This document shows positions 4,072 to 15,711 of a DNA stretch of 64,000 nt, in pieces. The stretch comes from a bacterium (lineage in GTDB: Bacteria > UBA10199 > 2-02-FULL-50-16 > JAJFLM01), in assembly GCA_965216315.1 (NCBI GenBank), contig CBDCFN010000016.1, positions 224,001-288,000 of the forward strand, given 5' to 3'. The notes beneath the pieces are model-generated. The model was given only the letters and a program-made list of their open reading frames with translations. It was not told where the DNA came from and searched no databases. How positions within the stretch are numbered: position 1 is the stretch's first letter; each line of letters opens with the position of its first letter. The translations under genes were made by a program, and so were the position numbers.

Positions 4072-5037
4072 TCAGGATCTCGAGGACTGCGACAATTTCA
4101 CATTCATTTTGCTGACATCCACTTCGGAGCACACTTGGTTGCGTCCTGACTCTTTGGCTAAATAGAGCGCCTTGTCCGCCTTGGTGATTAGGTCTTCTTC
4201 GGTTTGTACCTGCGGACCCAATGACGCGACTCCTATACTGGCCGTAAGCGTTGTTTGATAGTCGTCAATTTCCAGGTGAATGCCGGCGATTTTTTTGCAC
4301 ATCCGTTGCGCCAGATTGACGGCGTCTTTGTGCGCTGTTTCGGGCAAGATTATGCCGAACTCATCGCCCCCATAGCGTGCCACGGTGTCGACGCGTCGTA
4401 ATCCATCATTAAGTGCCTTCGCAACATATTGAAGGGCACGGTCGCCCGCTAAATGTCCTCCCTCATCATTGATGTCTTTGAGAGAATCAACATCCAGCAA
4501 GACGATCGAAAGGGGACGGTGATAACGCTGTGAGCGGTGGAATTCATCTTCGAGGCGCTCTTGAAAGAGACGTCGGTTGTACACGCCCGTTAAGCTGTCC
4601 TGGATGGCCATTTGTTTAAGCTGTTCATGGGCTTGCTGGGCTTCTTCCTTGAGTTGGCGCCTCTCGAGGACGGTTTCAAGAATGTGGGCAATCGAGGCGC
4701 CTTCGAGTTCTTCTTTGGTGAGATAATCATAGGCTCCTTGCTTGATAGCTTCTGAAGCAAGTTTTTCACTGCCCTGTCCCGTCAATACGACGACGGGCGT
4801 GCCTTTGTGTTCGTTGGTAAGCCAGCGGAGCAGGTAAAACGCATCGATGTAGGGGGGGCGATGGTCCGTGAGGATGATATCGTACGGAGTTTTATGGAGG
4901 ATGCCGACGGCATCCGCAGTGGAACGACAAAAGTGAAGCCGTCTTGAGTGGCCCGTTTGGGCGAGATTTTCTTCGAGTAGGCGGCCATCTTCTGCACTGT
5001 CATCTACGACTAAGAGTGCGATTTCGGAACGAAGCAT
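4072..5037 (-). CDS. Response regulator diguanylate cyclase (REC-GGDEF)
   Basis: VVDD, conserved Asp (LTDH), GAYDYLTK; DSLTGVYNRR; RxxD I-site (RRVD) and intact RYGGDEF. Confidence 0.93.
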   Translation of the reverse strand: MLRSEIALLVVDDSAEDGRLLEENLAQTGHSRRLHFCRSTADAVGILHKTPYDIILTDHRPPYIDAFYLLRWLTNEHKGTPVVVLTGQGSEKLASEAIKQGAYDYLTKEELEGASIAHILETVLERRQLKEEAQQAHEQLKQMAIQDSLTGVYNRRLFQERLEDEFHRSQRYHRPLSIVLLDVDSLKDINDEGGHLAGDRALQYVAKALNDGLRRVDTVARYGGDEFGIILPETAHKDAVNLAQRMCKKIAGIHLEIDDYQTTLTASIGVASLGPQVQTEEDLITKADKALYLAKESGRNQVCSEVDVSKMNVKLSQSSRS

Positions 5038-5118
5038 ATTAACTCCGCAAATTCTCCGCCGAGCCTCCGAGTTTGCTTCGCGCCTAAAGCGCAGCTTCAG
5101 GCTTGACGGTTGTGGGGA

Positions 5119-5147
5119 ATCATAGCGTGTGCGGCCGGTACTGGCAA
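5119..5147 (-). promoter_or_regulatory. Putative sigma70 promoter of the REC-GGDEF gene
   Basis: TTGCCA-N17-TATGAT on the minus strand. Confidence 0.55.
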
Positions 5148-5190
5148 GGTGTTTGCGTGACTTGCCAATTCTGGAAACGCGTGGTTACCC

Positions 5191-5895
5191 ATGTATATGG
5201 TTCAAGAGCCTCCACATCCATGGGATGTCACGTTCAAAGAAGCTGTTCAGATTCAAAAGGAGCTCGCACATCGGGTCTCTTTGCGAACGCCTGTAAAAAT
5301 TCAACAGCGTTTGCAAGCTCCGGAGCTGTTAATTGCTGCAGCCGATATTTCTTACAACCGACGCTCGCCACTGCTTTTTGCCGTTGTTGTGGTCATGCGG
5401 CTGGGTGATTTTGAGGTGATTGAAAGGGTGTCACACTGCATGAAAGTGACTTTTCCCTACGTGTCTGGTTTTCTCTCTTTTCGGGAAGCACCGGTGGTGA
5501 TCGAGGCCTTTAAGCAGCTGGAATGCCGACCCGATGTCCTGCTTTGTGACGGCCAAGGTCGGGCGCATCCGCGTCGCTTGGGTTTGGCATCTCATCTCGG
5601 TGTGCTCCTCAATCTTCCGAGTATCGGCTGTGCCAAGACGCGTCTTACGGGAACCTATCGCGAGCCCGGGGCCAAAAAGGGGGCGACGACGCGTTTGACG
5701 GACCGGGAAGAGGTGATTGGGCGGGTGGTGCGGACGCGTAGCGGAGTCAAGCCCATCTATGTTTCCGTAGGCCACAAGATCGATCTGGACGATGCTGTCC
5801 GTCTCGTACTAAGATGCTGCCCGCGTTATCGAATCCCGGAGCCCATAAGGCAGGCCCATATGATTGTTAACCAAGTTCGCGAGGCGTCGAGTTGA
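5191..5895 (+). CDS. nfi: Endonuclease V
   Basis: AADISY, FPYVSGFLSFRE, CDGQGRAHPRRLGLASHLG, IGCAK, PIYVSVGH, RIPEPIRQAH. Confidence 0.95.
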   Translation: MYMVQEPPHPWDVTFKEAVQIQKELAHRVSLRTPVKIQQRLQAPELLIAAADISYNRRSPLLFAVVVVMRLGDFEVIERVSHCMKVTFPYVSGFLSFREAPVVIEAFKQLECRPDVLLCDGQGRAHPRRLGLASHLGVLLNLPSIGCAKTRLTGTYREPGAKKGATTRLTDREEVIGRVVRTRSGVKPIYVSVGHKIDLDDAVRLVLRCCPRYRIPEPIRQAHMIVNQVREASS

Positions 5896-5898
5896 TCT

Positions 5899-7056
5899 AT
5901 GAGGTATGTTGCTCGAGTCGTTATATGTTTGGTGTTGCTTGGAACGGTTCCGTCTTTTTCGCTCTACGCCTTCAATCGCTCTTCTGCACTAGAACAACAG
6001 CAAGACAAAGCCCGCCAGGTTAGGACCTATCTGTTTAAAAGACAGTACACCCAGGCTGCCACGGAGATCCAGTCCGTCATCGATAGGTGGCCTGACGAAG
6101 TGCTCGGTTATTTCGGGATGATGTTGTTGTATCAACTGAGAAACTTCGAAAACCTCGATCATCGCTTTGATCAACAATACCTTCAATGGCATGAGCAAGG
6201 CCGTAAAAGTGCACTGAAAATCATAAACGACGGCCGGTCTGATCCGTGGCATCTTTTTATTGCTGCTGGAACACTGGGTTTGTCCGGCATGTACAAATTG
6301 AATCAAGGGAAGACGGTACGTGCCTTACGTGACGGTTCGATGGCGCTTAATGCACTCAAAAAGGCGTTAAAGAAAGATCCTAATTGGGTGGAACCTTATT
6401 ATGGCCTGGGCCTTTATGATTATTGGCGCAGTGTTTTTACCAACCGCTGGACCTTTCTTCCGTTTTTCCCCGACAAGCGCGACGAGGGTAGACGGAACAT
6501 CCAAAAGGTAATTGAGCGGGGGACGTTTGCACAGGAATTGGCTCGAGGCTCACTGGCCTATATGTATTATAATGATAAAAAATATGCCGAAGCACTTAAG
6601 ATTACCGGCCCATTAGTCGCGAAATATTCTAACAATGTTATTTTGCAAATACTTCATGCGCATATTTTGACCAAGCTCAAGCGGTACGATCTCGCGAAAA
6701 AAAACTATGAACGCATTTTGAGGCAGGATCCGCGCCTCACTAAAGTTAATTTTTATTTAGCGCGACTCTATTTTGCCAGTGCCAAGGATGAACAAGAAAA
6801 GCGCAAAAAAAACGCGTCCGCCAGCGTCCCTGTAGAAGCCTATGAAAAAGTGTTGCCGTGGGTGCAACGTTACGTCGAGGCGGAGCCTCATGCCAAAAAA
6901 CGGTGGAAGGCAGAGGCCTACAGCCTCTGGGGGGAAACGCTCTATCGGCTCAAGCGCTGGAGTGAGGCGAAGGCTAAATTCCGTCTCGCTCTCAAGCAAG
7001 ATTATTCCCTCTACCATGCCAAAAAACGCCTCACCGAGCTGCAGAAGCGGCTCTAG
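5899..7056 (+). CDS. Exported tetratricopeptide-repeat protein
   Basis: Signal peptide and several TPR-like helical repeats (ALKKDPNWVEPYYGLG). Confidence 0.75.
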   Translation: MRYVARVVICLVLLGTVPSFSLYAFNRSSALEQQQDKARQVRTYLFKRQYTQAATEIQSVIDRWPDEVLGYFGMMLLYQLRNFENLDHRFDQQYLQWHEQGRKSALKIINDGRSDPWHLFIAAGTLGLSGMYKLNQGKTVRALRDGSMALNALKKALKKDPNWVEPYYGLGLYDYWRSVFTNRWTFLPFFPDKRDEGRRNIQKVIERGTFAQELARGSLAYMYYNDKKYAEALKITGPLVAKYSNNVILQILHAHILTKLKRYDLAKKNYERILRQDPRLTKVNFYLARLYFASAKDEQEKRKKNASASVPVEAYEKVLPWVQRYVEAEPHAKKRWKAEAYSLWGETLYRLKRWSEAKAKFRLALKQDYSLYHAKKRLTELQKRL

Positions 7057-7097
7057 CGCCCGTATTCGAAAATCATCTAAAAATCGCGAACTTATTT

Positions 7098-7128
7098 TGT
7101 CGATAAGCTGTGGATAGAGTTGGGATAA
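7098..7128. promoter_or_regulatory. Three DnaA-box-like 9-mers at 11-bp period
   Basis: TGTCGATAA (7098), TGTGGATAG (7109), TTGGGATAA (7120) versus consensus TGTGGATAA. Confidence 0.4.
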
Positions 7129-7182
7129 CTTTTAATCCAAAAGTACTTGCGCTGATGACACACCTTGTTATGTTGCCCTTCC

Positions 7183-8568
7183 ATGGGCCTATCCATCGTC
7201 CAAAAAAGTAACCTGAATCAACGCCGGCCCCATGCCAAGACGGCGCTTGTCTTGGCCGGCGGCGCCATTACCGGCGGGACGTTTAAGGTCGGGGGCCTCA
7301 AGGCACTCAACGATTTTCTCGTCAATCGCAAGATAACCGATTTTGATCTTTATATCGGCCTTTCAGCCGGCGCCTTATTGGCGGCACCGCTTGCCGGCGG
7401 CATTGGTCCGGAAGAAATTCTCAAAAGTCTCAGTGGCTCATCAAGACATTTTAGACAGTTGTCCCCCATGCACATGTATACTCCTAACTGGCGTGAATTT
7501 ATTGAGCGACCGGTGAGTTATTTGTATCGCCGGGCGACCTATCTGCCGGGGATTGTGTATGACGTGGCCCGTTCTTATCCGTTTATTAAAGATGAAATTA
7601 AGAAGAAATTTTTCAACCTTGTTTCGCAACCGACGTATTCGAATCTAGAAGACCTGTTAGAACCTTTAGCCAAGGTGATTTACTCGAGTCGCGTGATGCC
7701 GAGTTTGGCCGAAGCACTGCCGAGCGGTCTTTTTGATAATCGGCCGCTCGAAGAATATATTCGCGCCAACATGGAAAGAAATCACCTGTCGAACAATTTT
7801 AAAGTCCTCAAGCGTTTGCGTAAAAAAGGTCTTTATATCGTGGCGACCGTGCTTGATTCCGCTGAGCGCGAGGTCTTCGGTTATGACGAAAAGAATGATG
7901 TTACGATTAGTGAAGCGGTCTGGGCGTCAACGGCTTTGCCGGGCTTTTATAAGCCAGTTCGACTCAAAGGGATTGATTACGTCGATGGCGCTGTGCGCCG
8001 CACGGCTAATATTGATGTGGCCGTCGCTAAAGGCGCTGAACTGATTATTTGTTATAACCCTTTTAGGCCTTTTAATAATGATCTTGTCCTTGAATATCTT
8101 CGCGAAGAAAAACGCTACGTGACTAAAGGGAAGCGATTATCACAGTTCGGTGTTTTTATGATTTTGAATCAGGCCGTTCGTTCGCTTTTTCACACGCGAC
8201 TGAAATTCACGCTCGAACACTACTCAAAAAATCCGAACTTTCAGGGAGACATCATTTTAATAGAACCTAAAGCGGATGATTCGCTTTTCTTCGAAATCAA
8301 TCCATTAGCTTTCTGGCAACGCGCCAAAGCGGCGAAGTGTGGTTTTAATTCCGTGCGGGATTCCATTGAAAGGCACTATGAACCGGTTTCCAAGATTCTC
8401 AATGCCTATGGAATTGAAATGAGTCGCGAACAGGTTGATCTTGATTATAGTAAAATAAGTCAGGCCGAAGATGATTCGGTGACATTGAAGGTACTGGAAG
8501 AGGAACGGCCGAAACGACGTTTTCGTGTGGTTAAAAACGGTGTTTCGGCGTCCGGCGCATCTAAATGA
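7183..8568 (+). CDS. Patatin-like phospholipase
   Basis: LVLAGGAITG glycine-rich loop, GLSAG nucleophile elbow, YVDGA catalytic Asp motif. ATG 7183 preferred over TTG 7165. Confidence 0.88.
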   Translation: MGLSIVQKSNLNQRRPHAKTALVLAGGAITGGTFKVGGLKALNDFLVNRKITDFDLYIGLSAGALLAAPLAGGIGPEEILKSLSGSSRHFRQLSPMHMYTPNWREFIERPVSYLYRRATYLPGIVYDVARSYPFIKDEIKKKFFNLVSQPTYSNLEDLLEPLAKVIYSSRVMPSLAEALPSGLFDNRPLEEYIRANMERNHLSNNFKVLKRLRKKGLYIVATVLDSAEREVFGYDEKNDVTISEAVWASTALPGFYKPVRLKGIDYVDGAVRRTANIDVAVAKGAELIICYNPFRPFNNDLVLEYLREEKRYVTKGKRLSQFGVFMILNQAVRSLFHTRLKFTLEHYSKNPNFQGDIILIEPKADDSLFFEINPLAFWQRAKAAKCGFNSVRDSIERHYEPVSKILNAYGIEMSREQVDLDYSKISQAEDDSVTLKVLEEERPKRRFRVVKNGVSASGASK

Positions 8569-9755
8569 AGATCTACTCCGTTTCGGAGCTGACTCACTCG
8601 ATAAAAGATCTCCTCGAAGAGACCTATCCGGAAGTCTGGGTAAGCGGGGAAATTTCCAATTTTAAAGCCCATCACAACGGGCATTTTTATTTTAATTTAA
8701 AAGACCAAGACAGTCGGCTTTCCGCCGTGATGTTTCGCGGCAGCAATCAAAGTCTGCGTTTTTCTCCGGAAGAAGGCATGGAAGTTGTGTGCTTTGGCAG
8801 GCTGACGATTTATCCTCCCTATGGTCAATACCAGATTATCGTCAACGCGATGGAACCCCAAGGTTTGGGAGCCCTTCAACTTGCCTTCGAGCAGCTGAAG
8901 GAAAAGCTCGCCAAGGAGGGTCTGTTTGAGGAGGGGAAGAAAAAGGAGCTGCCTTCCTTACCCAGACGGATCGGGATCGTCACATCGCAGTCGGGGGCGG
9001 CATTACGCGATATGATAGACGTCGCGATGCGGCGCTATCCTAATGTCGAAATTCTCGTGGCCCCTGCAGCAGTTCAAGGGAAGGAGGCGGCGCCGCAAAT
9101 TGCCGATGCGATCGCTCGTTTGAATAAGCAGCCGAATATCGATGTTATTCTTGTCGGTCGAGGAGGCGGATCGATGGAAGACTTATGGGCCTTCAACGAA
9201 GAAGTCGTTGCGCGTGCGATCGCGGCGTCGGCGATACCCATAATTTCAGCGGTGGGGCATGAAACGGATTTTACGATCGCTGATTTTGTTGCTGATGTTC
9301 GCGCGCCGACGCCATCGGCAGCCGCTGAGTTGGCGGTGCCCAGCAAGGAAGAATTGGTCTATACACTGGCACAATGGCGCTATCGCTTGACGCGTGCGAT
9401 TAAACAAGGTCTCGATGAGCGGCATGAAGATGTCTTGGAGCTGCGAAGGCGTCTTAAAGACCCGCGTCGACGTCTTGAAGAAATGATGCAGCGCTTGGAT
9501 GACTTGACGATGCGCTCTCAGCGCGCCATCTTTCATCGCCTGCAATATGGTCGGATGGAATGGCGACGCCTTCAGCGTTCACTCAAAAACCTGAATCCCC
9601 TGGCGATCTTGGAGCGGGGTTATGCCGTCGTGAACCCCGTGGGCTCCGCGCAGGCCCTGACATCTCCCGAGCAGGTCAAAATCGGGGATAAGGTGCAAAT
9701 TCGCCTCGCTCAGGGGCGGATTTCCGCGGAAATACTTAAAAAATGGGGACTTTAA
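8565..9755 (+). CDS. xseA: Exodeoxyribonuclease VII large subunit
   Basis: WVSGEISNFK..GHFYFNLKD, GRGGGSMEDLWAFN, SAVGHETDFTIADFVADVRAPTPSAAAE. Confidence 0.97.
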   Translation: MKIYSVSELTHSIKDLLEETYPEVWVSGEISNFKAHHNGHFYFNLKDQDSRLSAVMFRGSNQSLRFSPEEGMEVVCFGRLTIYPPYGQYQIIVNAMEPQGLGALQLAFEQLKEKLAKEGLFEEGKKKELPSLPRRIGIVTSQSGAALRDMIDVAMRRYPNVEILVAPAAVQGKEAAPQIADAIARLNKQPNIDVILVGRGGGSMEDLWAFNEEVVARAIAASAIPIISAVGHETDFTIADFVADVRAPTPSAAAELAVPSKEELVYTLAQWRYRLTRAIKQGLDERHEDVLELRRRLKDPRRRLEEMMQRLDDLTMRSQRAIFHRLQYGRMEWRRLQRSLKNLNPLAILERGYAVVNPVGSAQALTSPEQVKIGDKVQIRLAQGRISAEILKKWGL

Positions 9756-9791
9756 AGCCCCTCATATTGACTCGGGCCCGGCAAGGGGCGT

Positions 9792-10052
9792 ATGGAGCAG
9801 GCAGTTGTTATGCCCCCTGCTAAGGCAAAAAAAGAGAATTTCGAGACGGCGCTCAAAAAGCTCGAAAAGATCGTGACGGATCTGGAAGAAGGCGATTTGA
9901 GCCTGGAGCGTTCCATCAAGGACTTTGAGCAGGGCAGCAAGCTTGCCCAGCTTTGTGAAGACCAGCTTAATGCCGCCCGTAAAAAGGTGGAAGTCTTGAT
10001 GGGGGATAAAGTGGAGAGCTTTCCATGGGATGAAGAGGACGATGAAGATTGA
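9792..10052 (+). CDS. xseB: Exodeoxyribonuclease VII small subunit
   Basis: FETALKKLEKIVTDLEEGDLSLE...FEQG..L...C...L..A. Confidence 0.95.
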   Translation: MEQAVVMPPAKAKKENFETALKKLEKIVTDLEEGDLSLERSIKDFEQGSKLAQLCEDQLNAARKKVEVLMGDKVESFPWDEEDDED

Positions 10053-10962
10053 ATTGAAAAAATATCTCAAGCCGCGTCAAGAGCTCGTCAATCGCTATTT
10101 GGAAGAGCAGGTCCCGAAGGCGTCGTCGCCCGCGCCTATCCTCTATGAGGCGATGAACTACAGCCTTAGCGCCGGGGGGAAACGATTGCGTCCGATCTTG
10201 GTGCTTGCGGCGTGGGAGGCTTGCAAAGGAGATAAGGTTGCCATCAATAATGGCCTCCCTAAATATCCTGAAGCGGTCGTGGCGGCGGCTTGTGCCTTGG
10301 AAATGATTCATACCTATTCGTTAATCCATGATGACCTTCCTGCGATGGACGATGATGATTTGCGTCGCGGCGTTCCGACCAATCACAAGAAATTCGGTGA
10401 AGCGACTGCAATACTCGCTGGAGATGCATTATTGACGGAAGCGTTTGCCGCGCTTGCCACGGTGCCGACGGATGACAGTGACGTGATGTTGCGCGTAATC
10501 GGACAAATTGCACGTGCCTCCGGCGCGCAGGGAATGGCCGGGGGGCAGGTGCTGGATCTGCAGGCTGAAGGCAAGACGATTGAGCCGGAAGCATTAGAGC
10601 ATCTTCATCGGCATAAAACCGGTTGTTTGCTCCACGTCTCGTGCATCGCTGGTGGTGAATTGGCCGGTGCCAATAAAGAGCAGCGGCAAGCCCTCGATAC
10701 TTACGGGAAGAACATTGGACTGGCATTTCAAATCGCCGACGACATCCTTGATGTCGAAGGCGGGACGGAAGAGTTGGGCAAAACGGCCGGCGCCGATGCT
10801 GTCCATAATAAGAATACCTATCCCTCTCTGCTGGGCCTGGATCAGTCTAAACATCTGGCAGAGGCCCTGATTGAAACTGCCGTGTCCAGCCTAGAACCAT
10901 TAGGTGGTTCCAGTGCCGCTCTTGCGGCTATTGCGACGTATATTATTGCAAGGAAATCGTAA
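10042..10962 (+). CDS. ispA: Farnesyl/geranylgeranyl diphosphate synthase
   Basis: GGKRLRP, HTYSLIHDDLPAMDDDDLRRG, FQIADDILD; RBS-like GAGG before ATG 10042. Confidence 0.95.
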   Translation: MKIELKKYLKPRQELVNRYLEEQVPKASSPAPILYEAMNYSLSAGGKRLRPILVLAAWEACKGDKVAINNGLPKYPEAVVAAACALEMIHTYSLIHDDLPAMDDDDLRRGVPTNHKKFGEATAILAGDALLTEAFAALATVPTDDSDVMLRVIGQIARASGAQGMAGGQVLDLQAEGKTIEPEALEHLHRHKTGCLLHVSCIAGGELAGANKEQRQALDTYGKNIGLAFQIADDILDVEGGTEELGKTAGADAVHNKNTYPSLLGLDQSKHLAEALIETAVSSLEPLGGSSAALAAIATYIIARKS

Positions 10963-10964
10963 CT

Positions 10965-11390
10965 GTGGAATTTAAGCAGCACACGATTCAACTGGCGACG
11001 ACCCAGCCGATTGAGATCATCAATATAACAGATTCAGTTCAGGCCTTTGTTAAGGAAGCGGGACTGACTCATGGCCTGCTTCATGTCGGTAGTGCCCATA
11101 CCACTGTTGGACTTGCCATCAATGAAGAATGTTCTGAGTTACGTAAAGACTGGCTAGCTTTTTTGCAGCGCCTGGCTCCCGCTGGCGCTGATTACTTTCA
11201 TGACCGTGTCGCCGTTGACGGGCGCCCGAATGCCCACAGCCACTTGTTATCCACCGTGTTGCCGAGCCAGCTGACGATAGTCCTGCAGGATGGGGTACTC
11301 GCTCTCGGGACCTGGCAGTCGGTGTTTGCGATAGATCTCGATGGGCCACGACCCAATAGGAAAATTCATTTAACTGTGATGGGTGCGTAG
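10965..11390 (+). CDS. yjbQ: YjbQ/UPF0047 family protein
   Basis: HTT.GL.INE, Y.HD...NAHSHL, LGTWQ..F..DLDGPR motifs. Confidence 0.9.
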   Translation: MEFKQHTIQLATTQPIEIINITDSVQAFVKEAGLTHGLLHVGSAHTTVGLAINEECSELRKDWLAFLQRLAPAGADYFHDRVAVDGRPNAHSHLLSTVLPSQLTIVLQDGVLALGTWQSVFAIDLDGPRPNRKIHLTVMGA

Positions 11391-12600
11391 GGGCGTGTTA
11401 TCTGAACAAGACATTCCGGCTTTTTTCGCCTCCCGCTCCGATCTCAAGCTCGAAGACTACGCCATCTTTGAATACCGGTTTGAAACGGATAAAGATCCCA
11501 AGCAGGCGGCGGCTTCTTTATGTTGTGAGCAAAGCACCGCCCAGTGGCAGCGTCCCGGGGTTGATGAAGATTTTCGGCCTTTGCATGGGGCGAAGGTGTT
11601 GGAACTGACCCCTCACCCCGACCCTCTCCCTCAAGGGGAGAGGGGGCTCAAAAAGTATAAGGTCGTTATAGCTCACCCGCACCGCAACTTTGGTCCTCGC
11701 ATTCCTAATCTGTTGTCCGCAGCAGCGGGAGAGGGACCGTTTTATTGCCCCGGGATTAGCCGTATTAAGTGGACGGACCTGGAATTGCCGCGGTCTTACC
11801 TGAATGAATTCGAGGGACCCCAATTTGGTCTCAAGGGGGTTCGCGAACGCTTGGGAGTCAGTGATCGGCCGATTTTTTTCGGGGTGGTTAAACCAAATAT
11901 CGGTCTCAAGCCGGAAGATTTTGCGACGATAGCTGATGAGAGTTGGTGTGGCGGCCTTGATATCGCCAAAGACGACGAGATGTTGGCGGATACGGACTGG
12001 TCGCCGTTAATAGCACGGACGCGTCTGGCTGTCACTGCCAGTCAGCGGGCCGCGCAGGAGACCGGTCAAAAAAAGTTTTTTCTTCCCAATATTACGGATG
12101 AAGTGGATCGGATCCAAGACCTGTATCATCAAGTGACTGCAGCCGGTGCGCCAATGGTGATGATCAATGCGATCATGACCGGTATCAGTGCGCTACGAGC
12201 GTTGCGCCGCTACGCACAGGTACCCATTGTCAGCCACTTCACGGGAACATCGGTGTTCTCGCGCTTACCTCATTACGGGATGAGTTCGCTGGTGGCGACT
12301 AAACTACAGCGTTTGGCCGGCGCCGATATCATTATACTCGCGGGCTTTGGAGAACGGATGGGGTGTTCGGATGAAGAAGTCCTCGCAAATGTCGGTGCGT
12401 GCCTCCAGGAATGGGGCCCGTTGCTGCCTGTATTGCCGGTTCCGGGAGGAAGCGACAGTGCGGAGACTCTTGCCGGTGTCTATCAAAAGATCGGTCATGA
12501 AAATTTTGGATTCATTTGTGGTCGCGGTGTCTTTGGCCATTCCGATGGTCCCAAAGCAGGAGCGCAGAGTCTTCATGATGCCTGGGAACAGATTCGGTGA
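11383..12600 (+). CDS. RuBisCO-like protein (form IV, resembling the IV-Photo clade)
   Basis: GVVKPNIGL, GGLDIAKDDEMLAD (carbamylation KDDE motif), CCEQSTAQW, PVPGGSDSA, GRGVFGH..GPKAGA. From memory these closely resemble the Chlorobium RLP. No small subunit nearby. Confidence 0.9.
   Translation: MRRGVLSEQDIPAFFASRSDLKLEDYAIFEYRFETDKDPKQAAASLCCEQSTAQWQRPGVDEDFRPLHGAKVLELTPHPDPLPQGERGLKKYKVVIAHPHRNFGPRIPNLLSAAAGEGPFYCPGISRIKWTDLELPRSYLNEFEGPQFGLKGVRERLGVSDRPIFFGVVKPNIGLKPEDFATIADESWCGGLDIAKDDEMLADTDWSPLIARTRLAVTASQRAAQETGQKKFFLPNITDEVDRIQDLYHQVTAAGAPMVMINAIMTGISALRALRRYAQVPIVSHFTGTSVFSRLPHYGMSSLVATKLQRLAGADIIILAGFGERMGCSDEEVLANVGACLQEWGPLLPVLPVPGGSDSAETLAGVYQKIGHENFGFICGRGVFGHSDGPKAGAQSLHDAWEQIR
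11609..11646 (+). repeat. REP-like palindromic element inside the RLP coding sequence
   Basis: CCCCTCACCCCGACCCTCTCCCTCAAGGGGAGAGGGGG; stem CCCTCTCCC/GGGAGAGGG; translated in frame as PHPDPLPQGERG. Confidence 0.75.
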
Positions 12601-13346
12601 AAACCCGTCTCGACGTTTGGTTAAGCGAACACGATTTGGCTCCTTCTCGACAGCGTGCGCAAGCTCTCATCATGGCCGGCGTCGTCTTTGTTAATGATGA
12701 GTTAGCCAAGAGTGCCGCCCAGCCGGTTAAAGAGGGTGATCGTGTGGTCGTCCGGCAAAAAGATCATCCGTATGTCAGTCGTGGCGGTTTGAAGTTGGCT
12801 CATGCGCTTGAGGTGTTCAACGTCCCCGTACAGAACAAGGTCGCTGTCGATGTTGGAGCGTCAACGGGTGGCTTTACGGACTGTCTGCTTCAAGCAGGGG
12901 CCCGCAAGATTTATGCTGTCGATGTCGGTTATGGTCAACTGGATTGGAAATTGCGGCAGGATCAGCGTGTCGTTAGCATTGAGCGGTGTAATGCGCGTTA
13001 TTGGGATGCCGCTGAAGTTGAAGAGACAGTAGCTATCCTGACGATGGATATATCCTTTATTTCAATCCAGAAAGTCCTGCCGTCCGTCTTGTCTGCGCTG
13101 GCTGGAAAAATGGAACAACCTTTTTTTCTTATTCTGTTGATTAAGCCTCAGTTTGAGGCGGGTCGGGAAGAAGTTGGTCCCGGCGGTGTTGTTCGAGATA
13201 ATGCAGTCCAACAGCAAGTCGTGACGAAGATACGCCGTTTCGTTGCTGAGTTGGGTTTTGAGTGTGTGGGTGTGGAAGCCGCTCCTATCAAGGGCCCGAA
13301 GGGTAATCAAGAGTATCTTTTGGTCGCTAAGTCGTTTGACGTTTGA
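12597..13346 (+). CDS. tlyA: TlyA family rRNA 2'-O-methyltransferase
   Basis: S4 domain RLDVWL, YVSRGGLKL, DVGASTGGFTD, LIKPQFE, GPKGNQEYL. Confidence 0.95.
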   Translation: MKTRLDVWLSEHDLAPSRQRAQALIMAGVVFVNDELAKSAAQPVKEGDRVVVRQKDHPYVSRGGLKLAHALEVFNVPVQNKVAVDVGASTGGFTDCLLQAGARKIYAVDVGYGQLDWKLRQDQRVVSIERCNARYWDAAEVEETVAILTMDISFISIQKVLPSVLSALAGKMEQPFFLILLIKPQFEAGREEVGPGGVVRDNAVQQQVVTKIRRFVAELGFECVGVEAAPIKGPKGNQEYLLVAKSFDV

Positions 13347-13376
13347 TGGAACTAAAGCTAAGTTGTTGATATAACT

Positions 13377-14990
13377 ATGAAGTTCTTACAAGTTTTCATT
13401 GTCGCGTTGGTTGTGGCCGGACTGTTCGGCTCCTGTGCGCCGCGTGCGAAGCGTGCTCCGCTTATTGATACCGATGAGCATAGAGGGCTACGTTCTTATT
13501 TACTCAGCAAAATCGAGGCTTATCATGGTGAGCCGGAAGAGGCGATGAAATCGCTTAAAGAAGCACTAAAAGACGATCCGGATAATCCGCATATCGAAAC
13601 GCAAATTGCTGCGCTTGAAGCGGATCAAGGGCGCATTGCGCAGGCGCTGAAACGCGTCGATGATATTCTAATGCGCTATCCAAAGCATATTCCCGCCCTA
13701 CAATTAGCTGGTAAGATCGCCGGGACTCAAGGCCGCTTGGATGATGCCATTGCCTATTTCCGTAGAATTTTGCTGATTAAGTCATCGCTTTCTAGAATCC
13801 GTTTAAGCATTGCGGAGATTTATATTGCGCGCAAACAGTACCCGCAAGCCATTGCAGAGTTGCGGACTATTCAGCGAATCGAACCGGATTTTTTAGGGGC
13901 CTATTTCTTGGAAGGACTCATTTATACGGTTCACCTCAAAGACTATCCAAGAGCAATTATCGCCTACCGAAAGCTTCTTGAATACGAGCCGGCGAATATC
14001 CAGGTGCTGACAACGTTGGCTGAATTATATTTAAAGCTTAAGCAAAACCGGAAGGCTATTGGCGCATTAAGGCGTATTCACAAAATTGCTCCCTCCAATA
14101 TAGCCATCCCACTTAAGATTGCGTTGATACACTATCAGGCCAAACGCTATCAGGAAGCCGCGGATGAGTTCGTTTCGATTCAAGCGGAACACCCCGAAAT
14201 GGATAAGATCACGTACTATCTGGGAGTCATTTACGAAAATATTAAGAAGTATGATCAAGCTATTCTTGAGTTTGCCAAGATAGAGGAAGAATCAAAATAT
14301 TTCCGGGACGCAAGACTTCATCAAGCATTGATTTATGAGAAGCAAGAACGCCGCGATGAAGCGATTCAACTTCTTTGGGACACTATCGATGAAATGCCGC
14401 GTGAATCGGCGCTCTACGAATATCTTGTTGAGCTTTACCGTCAAGATCAAAATTGGGAAGGCGCTGTGGAGGCGCTCAAGAAAGCCATAGCCAAGACGGA
14501 TAATAAGGAGAAGTTCTATTATTCATTAGGCATGCTGTATGACCAGATGGGTTCGTTTGAGGACTCAATAGATGCGATGGAGGAAGTTCTCAAAATAAAT
14601 CCGGACAATGCCAATGCCCTCAATTTTATAGGCTATTTGTTTGCCGAGCAGGGGATTAAATTAAAGGAGGCAGAAGAAAAAGTCAGTAGGGCGCTGCAGC
14701 TAAAGCCGGATGATGGTTACATCACTGATAGTTTGGGTTGGGTCTATTTCAAGCAAGGAGAATTGAAAAAAGCAGCTGAGTACGTGCAACGCGCCTTGAA
14801 ATTGACGAAGAGAAAAGAGCCGACGATTATCGAGCACCTTGGGGATATTTATAAAGCGCAAGGACGTATCAAGGCTGCGCGACGGATGTATCAGCAGGCC
14901 TTACAACGACGTCATGCATCTCCTGATTTACTAGACAATAAAGAAGTTATACCGAGGCTTCGTGATAAGGTTAAAGAGACACTTCATTAG
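13377..14990 (+). CDS. TPR-repeat lipoprotein
   Basis: Lipobox-like FGSC; many TPRs; ALNFIGYLFAEQG...DGYITDSLGWVYFKQG...EHLGD C-terminal signature. Confidence 0.85.
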   Translation: MKFLQVFIVALVVAGLFGSCAPRAKRAPLIDTDEHRGLRSYLLSKIEAYHGEPEEAMKSLKEALKDDPDNPHIETQIAALEADQGRIAQALKRVDDILMRYPKHIPALQLAGKIAGTQGRLDDAIAYFRRILLIKSSLSRIRLSIAEIYIARKQYPQAIAELRTIQRIEPDFLGAYFLEGLIYTVHLKDYPRAIIAYRKLLEYEPANIQVLTTLAELYLKLKQNRKAIGALRRIHKIAPSNIAIPLKIALIHYQAKRYQEAADEFVSIQAEHPEMDKITYYLGVIYENIKKYDQAILEFAKIEEESKYFRDARLHQALIYEKQERRDEAIQLLWDTIDEMPRESALYEYLVELYRQDQNWEGAVEALKKAIAKTDNKEKFYYSLGMLYDQMGSFEDSIDAMEEVLKINPDNANALNFIGYLFAEQGIKLKEAEEKVSRALQLKPDDGYITDSLGWVYFKQGELKKAAEYVQRALKLTKRKEPTIIEHLGDIYKAQGRIKAARRMYQQALQRRHASPDLLDNKEVIPRLRDKVKETLH

Positions 14991-15711
14991 CAGCCTAATT
15001 ATATTAGGGTTGTGTAGTTGTGCGGGTCTTCGCATGATCGAACGTCCCCAGGCGACTTCGTCTGCCGTGCGGCAAGGGGCGCAGTGGTATGAAGTGTTGT
15101 GGCAGCGTGATCAGGCCATTCAAACTCTTAGGGCGTCGGCACGAGTCCGTGTGAGTAGTGGGATTTTCTCCAGAGCGGTGGAGCAGGCGTTGATCGTTAA
15201 AAGGCCTAAGAATATGCGGCTTGATAGCTATACGGTCTTGGGGAATTTAATTCATCAATTAGTGCTTCGTAACGGTTCTTTATGGGTTTATGATGCAACG
15301 CGCGAACGCTTCGATAAAGATCGTGATGCGGAGCGACTACTGGAGGAAAACCTGGGTCTCGGCTTATCTATTGATGATATGGTCAGTATTTTAGTGGGGA
15401 GCGTTCCGTTGGAAGAGAGGACTGATTACCTCGCCGTTACAAAAAAACAGGGGGATGTGCTGCGAGGACTTAATTCGCAGGTTCTTATCGATCCTCAGAC
15501 GCAGCTGCCGCAGCGTTTTTCCGGCTATACGCGCCACAATGAGCTCTATGAGGTTCGCTATAGTCATTACCGGGAGGTGGCAGGGATCTCCTTCCCTCAT
15601 CGCATTGCGGTGGCGCTCCATGAGCCGCGAATTTCGCTTGAAATAAGCTTTAAAGATGTTGATATCAATATTCCTGTATCGGACGAAAAGTTTGCACATG
15701 AAGTTCATTAA
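14962..15711 (+). CDS. LolB-like/DUF4292-like lipoprotein
   Basis: Lipobox LCSC; RP..MRLD, LWVYD, Y..Y......FP..I pattern of LolA/LolB-fold proteins; follows the TPR gene. Confidence 0.55.
   Translation: MIRLKRHFISSLIILGLCSCAGLRMIERPQATSSAVRQGAQWYEVLWQRDQAIQTLRASARVRVSSGIFSRAVEQALIVKRPKNMRLDSYTVLGNLIHQLVLRNGSLWVYDATRERFDKDRDAERLLEENLGLGLSIDDMVSILVGSVPLEERTDYLAVTKKQGDVLRGLNSQVLIDPQTQLPQRFSGYTRHNELYEVRYSHYREVAGISFPHRIAVALHEPRISLEISFKDVDINIPVSDEKFAHEVH

Follow-up and report, generated by a model that had tools for sequence, protein, structure and literature searches.

In Escherichia coli and Bacillus, the gene for the synthase of DXP (1-deoxy-D-xylulose-5-phosphate), dxs, stands in xseB-ispA-dxs(-yajO) and xseA-xseB-ispA-dxs-tlyA operons, and engineered nDXP routes run via YajO or a mutant RibB. 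A described link between a ribulose-bisphosphate carboxylase/oxygenase (RuBisCO)-like protein (RLP) and DXP is the MTA-isoprenoid shunt (MTA, 5'-methylthioadenosine) of Rhodospirillum rubrum and Rhodopseudomonas palustris, where MtnP and MtnA act first, the RLP is of the DeepYkr type and serves as 5-methylthioribulose-1-phosphate (MTRu-1-P) 1,3-isomerase, and its partner is a cupin, the MTXu-5-P methylsulfurylase, which yields DXP. For RLPs of the IV-Photo clade, crystal structures date back about two decades, and to our knowledge no substrate has been assigned; likewise, we know of no native function for YjbQ (UPF0047), a family with many deposited structures that occurs in bacteria, archaea and eukaryotes. 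Here we analyze a 64,000-nt stretch of DNA (the window; positions 224,001 to 288,000 of contig CBDCFN010000016.1, assembly GCA_965216315.1) from a bacterium of the GTDB lineage Bacteria; UBA10199; 2-02-FULL-50-16; JAJFLM01, in which yjbQ and the gene of an RLP that we assign to the IV-Photo clade stand where dxs would be expected. The comparative evidence presented below ties these two genes to each other and to ispA and dxs.

Among some 4,400 complete bacterial genomes, passages of PMC10663253 count 181 that miss only Dxs and leave the mechanism unexplained in 172 of them, which makes the missing Dxs a recognised open problem; suppressor routes are named there as well.

Results

The operon of the window and the absence of dxs

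Six genes, xseA-xseB-ispA-yjbQ-RLP-tlyA, form a single tight operon without dxs at positions 8565-13346 of the window. Together with the gene directly upstream, the features are:

8565-9755, forward strand: xseA, exodeoxyribonuclease VII large subunit (TIGR00237, 500.9 bits, cut-off 180)
9792-10052, forward strand: xseB, exodeoxyribonuclease VII small subunit (TIGR01280, 77.1 bits, cut-off 35)
10030-10962, forward strand: ispA, farnesyl diphosphate synthase (NF045485, 366.2 bits, cut-off 275; PF00348, 202.8 bits)
10965-11390, forward strand: yjbQ (UPF0047), RLP-linked subtype (TIGR00149, 108.3 bits, cut-off 67.75; PF01894, 114.2 bits)
11383-12600, forward strand: form IV (assigned to IV-Photo) RLP, 405 aa (PF00016, 145.9 bits, cut-off 30.1)
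12597-13346, forward strand: tlyA-family rRNA 2'-O-methyltransferase (TIGR00478, 238.8 bits, cut-off 185.8)
7165-8568, forward strand: patatin-like phospholipase gene (open reading frame; PF01734, 94.7 bits)

The xseA/xseB and ispA/yjbQ junctions are gaps of 36 and 2 nt, and the others are overlaps of 4 nt (patatin/xseA), 23 nt (xseB/ispA), 8 nt (yjbQ/RLP) and 4 nt (RLP/tlyA); ispA, yjbQ, RLP and tlyA are translationally coupled. Open reading frame coordinates and profile searches thus agree with the initial annotation, which had read ispA, yjbQ, RLP and tlyA as abutting or overlapping genes with no dxs among them.

The initial annotation had also proposed a genome search for dxs and for genes of the methylerythritol phosphate (MEP) and mevalonate pathways, and its outcome is that of an MEP-type genome lacking the first enzyme. 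In a six-frame search of all 16 contigs of the window's genome (G000; 98.3% complete), the best match to the dxs model TIGR00204 scored 142 bits versus a cut-off of 466, and none fell in the cluster of the window. The best-scoring open reading frame for this model (612 aa) was rejected as a cryptic DXS, being a transketolase (NF004559, 887 bits); a split pair of open reading frames was rejected on the same ground, with transketolase as its best model. The MEP genes searched for, dxr (508 bits), ispG (290 bits) and ispH (218 bits), are all present above their cut-offs, and a search for HMG-CoA reductase in G000 found none. A relative, G023 (100% complete, 3 contigs), holds dxr and ispA-yjbQ-RLP and gave zero matches to the dxs/transketolase model at E ≤ 0.001, which excludes a cryptic thiamine pyrophosphate (TPP)-dependent DXS in that genome. 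G023 appears to be without transketolase, DXS and E1-beta-like enzymes altogether.

Distribution and linkage to ispA within the class

We surveyed 93 genomes of the window's class; dxr, mtnA and mtnB were counted in a sample of 41 of these. Matches to dxs above cut-off are confined to 17 of the 93 genomes, and 40 of the 41 sampled carry dxr. IV-Photo RLPs occur in 57 genomes, plus one divergent RLP (38% identity) in G024. LsrF, considered below as a possible alternative to the pair, occurs in 13 genomes, two of the genes being fragments. The combinations are distributed as follows:

dxs absent (76 genomes): RLP only, 46; LsrF only, 10; both, 1; neither, 19
dxs present (17 genomes): RLP only, 10; LsrF only, 2; both, 0; neither, 5

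The 19 genomes without dxs, RLP and LsrF include all 14 of family f4 (G005, G020, G027, G034, G063-G072) and the single-contig G080, with G031 and G081 also among them, and 2 of the 19 are less than 90% complete. Of the genomes named here, those that fall within the 41-genome sample do have dxr. Two members of f4 are 100% complete; in G005 and G027 of this family, ispA is followed by genes for a zinc-dependent alcohol dehydrogenase (Zn-ADH) and UbiD.

We scored RLP as linked to ispA when it lies 3' of ispA, on the same strand and within 1.5 kb. This was the case in 51 of the 57 RLP-bearing genomes, and the position is kept across about 20 families of the class, so that the synteny survey which the initial annotation had suggested favored its view of the locus, and a chance juxtaposition of RLP with ispA is ruled out by the number of genomes that share it. 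Linkage is tighter in genomes without dxs (45/47) than in those with it (6/10; Fisher test, P-value 0.007, uncorrected and with related genomes that are not independent), and for 2 of the 4 'unlinked' dxs-positive genomes the RLP gene lies at a contig edge, where linkage cannot be judged. The distance between ispA and RLP is 421-740 nt, the size of yjbQ, in 43 of the 51 linked genomes and ≤183 nt in the other 8; yjbQ was confirmed directly inside the gap in 16 relatives. At one locus, L040 (G030:C30, positions 1858-2557), a nucleotidyltransferase gene and a substrate-binding (HEPN-like) gene, a pair typical of toxin-antitoxin systems, are inserted between ispA and RLP.

Given the 4-nt overlap of its stop with the start of xseA, the patatin-like gene is probably the first gene of the xseA transcription unit. 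It lies directly 5' of xseA in many genomes of the class (L022, L023, L026, L036, L048, L073, L083, L099), and the recurrence of this order defines the conserved unit as patatin-xseA-xseB-ispA-(yjbQ)-RLP-tlyA. A scan of positions 4800-15200 returned 12 promoter-like and 13 terminator-like sites versus means of 9.2 and 13.0 in shuffled sequence and gave no indication of the operon limits.

yjbQ and RLP form a module that spans phyla

The 80 best RLP loci from all genomes were examined, 77 of which have enough upstream sequence to be judged. We found yjbQ directly upstream of RLP and on the same strand in 56 of the 77, under at least five phylum labels. The loci carry the labels Nitrobacteraceae, Rhodoblastaceae, Hyphomicrobiaceae, Chromatiaceae, Ectothiorhodospiraceae, Rhodocyclaceae, Gemmatimonadaceae, Chloroherpetonaceae and 'Planctomycetota', in addition to metagenome-assembled genomes (MAGs) of the window's class. 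LsrF takes the upstream position in 15 of the 77 (all Chlorobiaceae or Chlorobiota), and 6 have neither gene. We regard yjbQ and the IV-Photo RLP as an old, co-inherited module of two enzymes. No paper linking an RLP with YjbQ was found in the literature searched.

Of the 80 loci, 13 have ispA nearby. The module also meets isoprenoid genes outside the class: dxs itself lies beside yjbQ-RLP in six loci there, with the order dxs-yjbQ-RLP in one Rhodomicrobium MAG, xseB-dxs-(SOUL)-yjbQ-RLP in four Alphaproteobacteria MAGs and xseA..yjbQ-RLP..ispA-dxs in one 9-Mb 'Planctomycetota' MAG. A search of longer proteins yielded five natural fusions (P0001-P0005, 455-468 aa) in which an N-terminal YjbQ is joined to a C-terminal polyprenyl synthase. 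The synthase half is of the medium- or long-chain type, not of the IspA type, and scores below all equivalog cut-offs. By their source names, two of the fusions come from MAGs of Dormibacteraeota and Limnocylindrales. Among proteins of 710-2025 aa, a search at E ≤ 1e-30 gave no fusion of an RLP, which is weak evidence.

An aldo-keto reductase gene follows RLP in three genomes, including G011 (L050:6717-7877) and G032 (L052:3822-4928), with L077 also listed, and a related one follows ispA in the RLP-less G095 (L189:2531-3676). This placement recalls that of yajO, which lies downstream of dxs in E. coli.

Properties of the RLP and of YjbQ

The RLP is the sole RuBisCO-family gene found in a search of G000. 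Besides PF00016 it matches PF02788 (22.2 bits, cut-off 20.7), as expected of a member of the RuBisCO superfamily. Against structures it scores 476 bits to 2QYG and 448 bits to 1TEL and 1YKW, versus ≤165 bits to any other RuBisCO or RLP structure; judged by these scores it belongs to the IV-Photo clade, the type of Chlorobaculum tepidum RLP and R. palustris RLP2, as the initial annotation had cautioned. RLP2 is about 55% identical to the window RLP, and its gene also has yjbQ upstream. All NCBIfam equivalog cut-offs are missed: TIGR03326 (type III RuBisCO) gives 194 bits versus 497, NF003252 190 versus 438 and OiaX 160 versus 700. Several other assignments were considered. A bona fide RuBisCO of forms I-III was rejected on these scores and on the substituted active-site residues. 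MtnW, the enolase of the YkrW clade, was rejected as well (NF007095, 166 versus 409 bits; TIGR03332, 131 versus 514 bits). For a DeepYkr RLP, the closest structures all proved to be of the Photo clade, in a comparison that included no DeepYkr reference sequence.

We aligned the RLP to the RuBisCO structure of Pyrococcus horikoshii (2CWX), with residues numbered as in spinach RuBisCO. The RLP retains K175, K201, D203, E204 and H294, of which K201 corresponds to the carbamylated lysine and D203 and E204 to the metal ligands. It carries the substitutions K177N, R295F, H298T, H327I, K334R, S379G, G404R, N123E and T65Q; residues of carboxylation are lost while the carbamate and metal motif is kept. 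Enolisation of a 2-keto-3-hydroxy phosphate is therefore plausible as far as the alignment goes, and since R295 and H327, which belong to one phosphate site, are lost, the substrate may have a single phosphate and an apolar end. Membership in the IV-Photo clade itself says nothing on activity, because the proteins of the clade are without established function.

YjbQ of the window matches TIGR00149 over its full length (positions 2-131 of 132). Its nine relatives in the PDB are all annotated as hypothetical or uncharacterised, and none of the UPF0047 literature searched was functional, as judged by title and abstract. NCBIfam names the family 'secondary thiamine-phosphate synthase', and the original experiment reportedly found a weak thiamine-phosphate synthase side activity. 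In a tree of 100 YjbQ rows, 64 of the 69 RLP-linked copies, including that of the window, fall into one group (SH-aLRT 89), separated from unlinked paralogues of the class, which form three well-supported clades; the remaining 5 branch at the base of the tree without resolution. Positions H45, E54, H79, D85, R87, H93, R129 and R132 are invariant in the RLP-linked YjbQ, a pattern of His, Asp, Glu and Arg that would fit a metal-dependent enzyme acting on an anionic substrate. Two eukaryotic homologues (P0006 and P0007, one of them named Chlamydomonas) are 31-41% identical to the window YjbQ and have long N-terminal extensions, which could be organelle-targeting sequences.

An lsrF-adh pair alternates with yjbQ-RLP

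In all 15 informative Chlorobiaceae loci, the IV-Photo RLP gene stands in a cluster of a class II aldolase-short-chain dehydrogenase (SDR) fusion, LsrF, RLP and an SDR (L092-L131, e.g. L093:2681-8164), and no paper discussing this cluster was found in the literature searched. Against NF006081 the LsrF of these loci reaches 510 bits (cut-off 297), and against the E. coli LsrF structures, which it matches end to end, 385 bits, by which it is a true LsrF orthologue. The LsrF proteins of the window's class score 410-433 bits and 334 bits, respectively. Their genes are followed on the same strand by that of a Zn-ADH, often with a second one adjoining. We found lsrF-adh in the RLP-less class genomes at L186 (G092:C22, 4294-8811), L187 (G074:C19, 4846-8686), L179, L182, L183, L184, L188 and L191.

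LsrF and RLP avoid each other within the class: they occur together in 1 of the 93 genomes versus about 8 expected (Fisher test, P-value 3e-5, uncorrected), and the switch from one to the other takes place within families f3, f16 and f17. In G092 the order on one strand is xseA-xseB-ispA-lsrF-adh, so that lsrF-adh fills the slot held by yjbQ-RLP in the window, and in G074 lsrF-adh ends 38 nt from a convergent dxs. G000 yielded 0 LsrF candidates, with no tblastn match at E ≤ 1e-10, and tblastn found in it neither a Zn-ADH of the lsrF-linked types nor a close homologue of the aldo-keto reductases of its relatives. The idea that the Zn-ADH beside ispA is one uniform partner was rejected: these enzymes are 26-46% identical to one another and the f4 copies are followed by UbiD, for which reason they may not share one function.

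The two modules can be brought together through their chemistry. LsrF cleaves 3-hydroxy-5-phosphonooxypentane-2,4-dione (P-HPD) to dihydroxyacetone phosphate (DHAP) and acetyl-CoA. P-HPD and its isomer, phospho-4,5-dihydroxypentane-2,3-dione (P-DPD), are DXP oxidised at C4 or C3; P-DPD is identical to the beta-elimination by-product of the RuBisCO enediol, and oxidation of the C4 hydroxyl of 5-deoxyribulose-1-phosphate also yields P-HPD. RLP, LsrF, the ADHs and DXP thus belong to one small family of C5 compounds and their enzymes, and lsrF-adh is a candidate route from DHAP and acetyl-CoA via P-HPD to DXP. The literature searched contained no relevant paper linking LsrF with deoxyxylulose or with 5-deoxyribose.

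Some genes of both modules are interrupted. Otherwise full-length RLPs carry in-frame stops in G090 (3 TGA; C1:216181-217380) and G040 (1 TAA; C124:17258-18430), as does the LsrF of G095 (1 TGA and 1 TAG; C72:75122-75928); possible causes are decay to pseudogenes, errors of assembly and, in G090, recoding of TGA.

Possible sources of the substrate

G000 encodes MTA phosphorylase (MtnP; 336 bits, cut-off 275), MtnA (464 bits, cut-off 279), MtnB (195 bits, cut-off 137) and MtnD (129 bits). The mtnB and mtnD genes are adjacent to each other outside the window (C16:953809-954836), a branched-chain aminotransferase gene adjoins mtnA, and mtnC gave 0 matches in the genome. Across the sampled class genomes, mtnA is present in 40 of 41 and mtnB above cut-off in only 3 of 41, which leaves the MtnA product without its canonical consumer in most of the class. 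A near-universal MtnA without such a consumer fits an RLP acting on the MtnA product. At G000:C16:786845-788279, the MTA phosphorylase gene comes after rlmN and before a PfkB-family sugar kinase gene weakly similar to ribose-1-phosphate kinases. The fetched flanks of the 119 RLP, ispA and LsrF loci contain no PfkB kinase, dxr, ispG or ispH.

Discussion

A possible role at the entrance of the MEP pathway

The link of yjbQ-RLP to genes of isoprenoid precursors is backed by four lines of evidence: the conserved order in the class, the same association in two other lineages, the fusions of YjbQ with polyprenyl synthases and the exchange with LsrF and ADH. We think it rather probable that the pair acts on some C5 phosphate related to DXP. 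A more specific proposal, that in G000 the module acts on a deoxy-ketopentose phosphate feeding DXP, we put forward tentatively and at distinctly less than even probability.

According to this proposal, the substrate of the module would be a deoxy-ketopentose monophosphate, a five-carbon compound, and its place would be where the MEP pathway begins; in the DXS-less G000, the module is our best candidate for the supply of DXP. The RLP, with the enolisation and metal core of RuBisCO minus one phosphate site, would isomerise 5-deoxy-D-ribulose-1-phosphate, or a close congener, to DXP by a 1,3-proton transfer, as the R. rubrum RLP does on the methylthio analogue. The substrate might come from 5'-deoxyadenosine or MTA via MtnP and MtnA or, alternatively, from C-C bond formation on DHAP catalysed by YjbQ, and DXR, IspG, IspH and IspA would take DXP onward. 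Which substrate is used, in which direction the reaction runs and what YjbQ does are all inferred here. As G000 is without LsrF, a Zn-ADH of the lsrF-linked types and a close aldo-keto reductase, DXP-making by the pair, if real, must proceed without a redox step, a requirement that isomerisation of a 5-deoxy-ketopentose-1-phosphate meets. No paper linking 5-deoxyribulose to an RLP-catalysed route to DXP was found in the literature searched.

Several observations weigh against this proposal. RLP is equally common in class genomes without dxs (47/76) and with it (10/17). Moreover, RLP and LsrF are both missing from 19 of the 76 genomes without dxs, so the class must have another source of DXP, possibly one that serves G000 too. 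Outside the class, five RLP-bearing genomes were checked and each has dxs; there, the pair accompanies DXS rather than replacing it. YjbQ is dispensable in some genomes, because 8 of the 51 ispA-linked RLPs leave no room for yjbQ and six genomes of this kind hold only other YjbQ paralogues. The genes mtnA, mtnP, mtnB and mtnD are absent from the flanks of all 119 loci, and, by our estimate, by-products of S-adenosylmethionine (SAM) may carry too little flux to be the only source of DXP. Counts from related genomes, which are not independent, overstate the statistical weight of the survey. Finally, passages of PMC5893883 report that R. palustris RLP2 converts only traces of 5-methylthioribulose-1-phosphate and that its deletion has no MTA or sulfur phenotype. 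The same passages describe RLP2 assayed without YjbQ and do not mention 5-deoxyribulose-1-phosphate, and they call for further experiments to establish what RLP2 does.

Taken as a general substitute for DXS, yjbQ-RLP is neither proven nor general: the frequency of RLP is independent of dxs, and the 19 dxs-less genomes manage without RLP and LsrF. The suggestion in the initial annotation that the pair may give a DXS-independent route to DXP or a related sugar phosphate was therefore strengthened in one part, the isoprenoid linkage, which extends to other lineages, fusions and the lsrF-adh exchange; a stronger version, in which the pair takes over from DXS, finds no support in the distribution.

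Alternative explanations

A possible but on the whole unlikely alternative is that the pair repairs or detoxifies P-DPD, P-HPD or damaged DXP in the manner of LsrG and LsrF, with DXP made by another enzyme of the class. Its attraction is that it would account for an RLP that is as frequent with dxs as without and that adjoins an intact dxs in six loci, and for LsrF, whose known direction is cleavage, as partner of RLP in Chlorobiaceae and its alternate in the class; the 19 genomes devoid of dxs, RLP and LsrF argue in the same direction, for a single class-wide source of DXP. However, these genomes, in which LuxS and LsrK were not searched for, show no evident source of P-DPD, and G000 has no LsrF or ADH that would complete a catabolic route. 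Neither the tighter ispA linkage in dxs-less genomes nor G023, with no TPP-dependent candidate at all, is expected if the pair only repairs.

It is improbable that the module has a role unrelated to isoprenoids, for example in sulfur oxidation or stress as reported for the C. tepidum RLP, and landed in a housekeeping super-operon by chance. In Rhodopseudomonas, Ectothiorhodospira and Gemmatimonas, the genes around yjbQ-RLP are indeed not isoprenoid genes, and the operon of the window itself carries the non-isoprenoid xseAB and tlyA. Yet chance would have had to produce the association with xse-ispA-dxs in three separate lineages, put lsrF-adh in the same slot, preserve the position in some 20 families and create the YjbQ-polyprenyl-synthase fusions.

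These fusions, together with the start of yjbQ 2 nt after ispA, would also suit an arrangement in which YjbQ acts together with IspA, their targets being allylic or prenyl diphosphates, and RLP is a separate function travelling along; the thiamine-phosphate synthase name given by NCBIfam points the same way, as that weak activity also ionises a diphosphate ester. We consider this more improbable still, since yjbQ stays with RLP in most of the informative loci, generally with no ispA nearby, RLP follows ispA without yjbQ in 8 of the 51 linked class genomes, and the synthase half of the fusions is not of the IspA type. Least probable of all, though conceivable for G000 taken by itself, is that RLP and YjbQ fill the enolase/phosphatase hole of methionine salvage in G000 as MtnW/MtnX do in Bacillus: the genome does have mtnP, mtnA, mtnB and mtnD with no mtnC found and an aminotransferase gene adjoining mtnA, but the RLP is far below the MtnW cut-offs and of the IV-Photo rather than the YkrW clade, mtnB scores above cut-off in only 3 of 41 sampled class genomes versus 27 of 41 for RLP (G020 has mtnB but no RLP), and the ispA/dxs linkage and the LsrF exchange would be left unexplained.

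Significance

Beyond the proposal for G000, one may ask whether DXS-less MEP bacteria at large make DXP by previously unrecognised TPP-independent two-step routes in which a C5 keto-phosphate is built or rearranged from DHAP-level metabolites or SAM by-products, using either YjbQ and an IV-Photo RLP or, interchangeably, a condensing LsrF and a Zn-dependent ketoreductase. We regard this generalization as doubtful. If true, it would provide the first physiological function for IV-Photo RLPs and for UPF0047/YjbQ, give LsrF a new role outside quorum sensing and account in part for the missing Dxs. Since Dxs is a control point in the metabolic engineering of terpenoids, that field too would take an interest in a TPP-independent route to DXP. 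The present analysis identifies LsrF with ADH as an interchangeable module and names a short list of C5 substrates.

Comparison with known systems

The likeness to MtnW/MtnX of Bacillus consists in an RLP with a small partner and a genome with mtnB and mtnD and no mtnC. It differs in the scores far below MtnW, in the clade and in the lack of mtnB from most RLP-bearing genomes of the class.

In the Lsr pathway, LsrG is the P-DPD isomerase and LsrF the P-HPD thiolase that gives DHAP and acetyl-CoA. LsrF lies upstream of the Chlorobiaceae RLP, and LsrF with ADH replaces yjbQ-RLP in the class, including in the ispA slot; the substrates on both sides would be C5 1-deoxy keto-phosphates, one oxidation step from DXP. 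In contrast to the Lsr system, G000 has no LsrF, and no autoinducer-2 (AI-2) uptake or kinase context is seen near these genes.

The IV-Photo RLPs 1YKW, 1TEL and 2QYG match the window RLP end to end and agree with it in which RuBisCO residues are retained and which are exchanged, and in R. palustris yjbQ is likewise upstream. However, the host of the window appears non-phototrophic, judging from the MAG labels of look-alike loci, and its RLP gene is embedded in xseAB-ispA-tlyA in a genome without dxs.

With the MTA-isoprenoid shunt of R. rubrum and R. palustris the window shares an RLP tied to DXP and isoprenoid genes, the presence of MtnP and MtnA, and a small second protein encoded next to the RLP. 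The differences are that the window RLP is assigned to IV-Photo and not to DeepYkr, that its partner is YjbQ and not a cupin, and that dxs is absent from G000, whereas in R. rubrum and R. palustris the shunt is described as operating next to other routes. As passages of PMC5893883 have it, the shunt reaction is not performed by RLP2, the IV-Photo protein of R. palustris.

As for YajO, the aldo-keto reductase genes after RLP or ispA in G011, G032 and G095 are reminiscent of it, and G000 differs in having no close homologue of these reductases. Overall, the xse-ispA-dxs operons of E. coli and Bacillus have the same flanking genes in the same order as the operon of the window, with dxs replaced by yjbQ-RLP.

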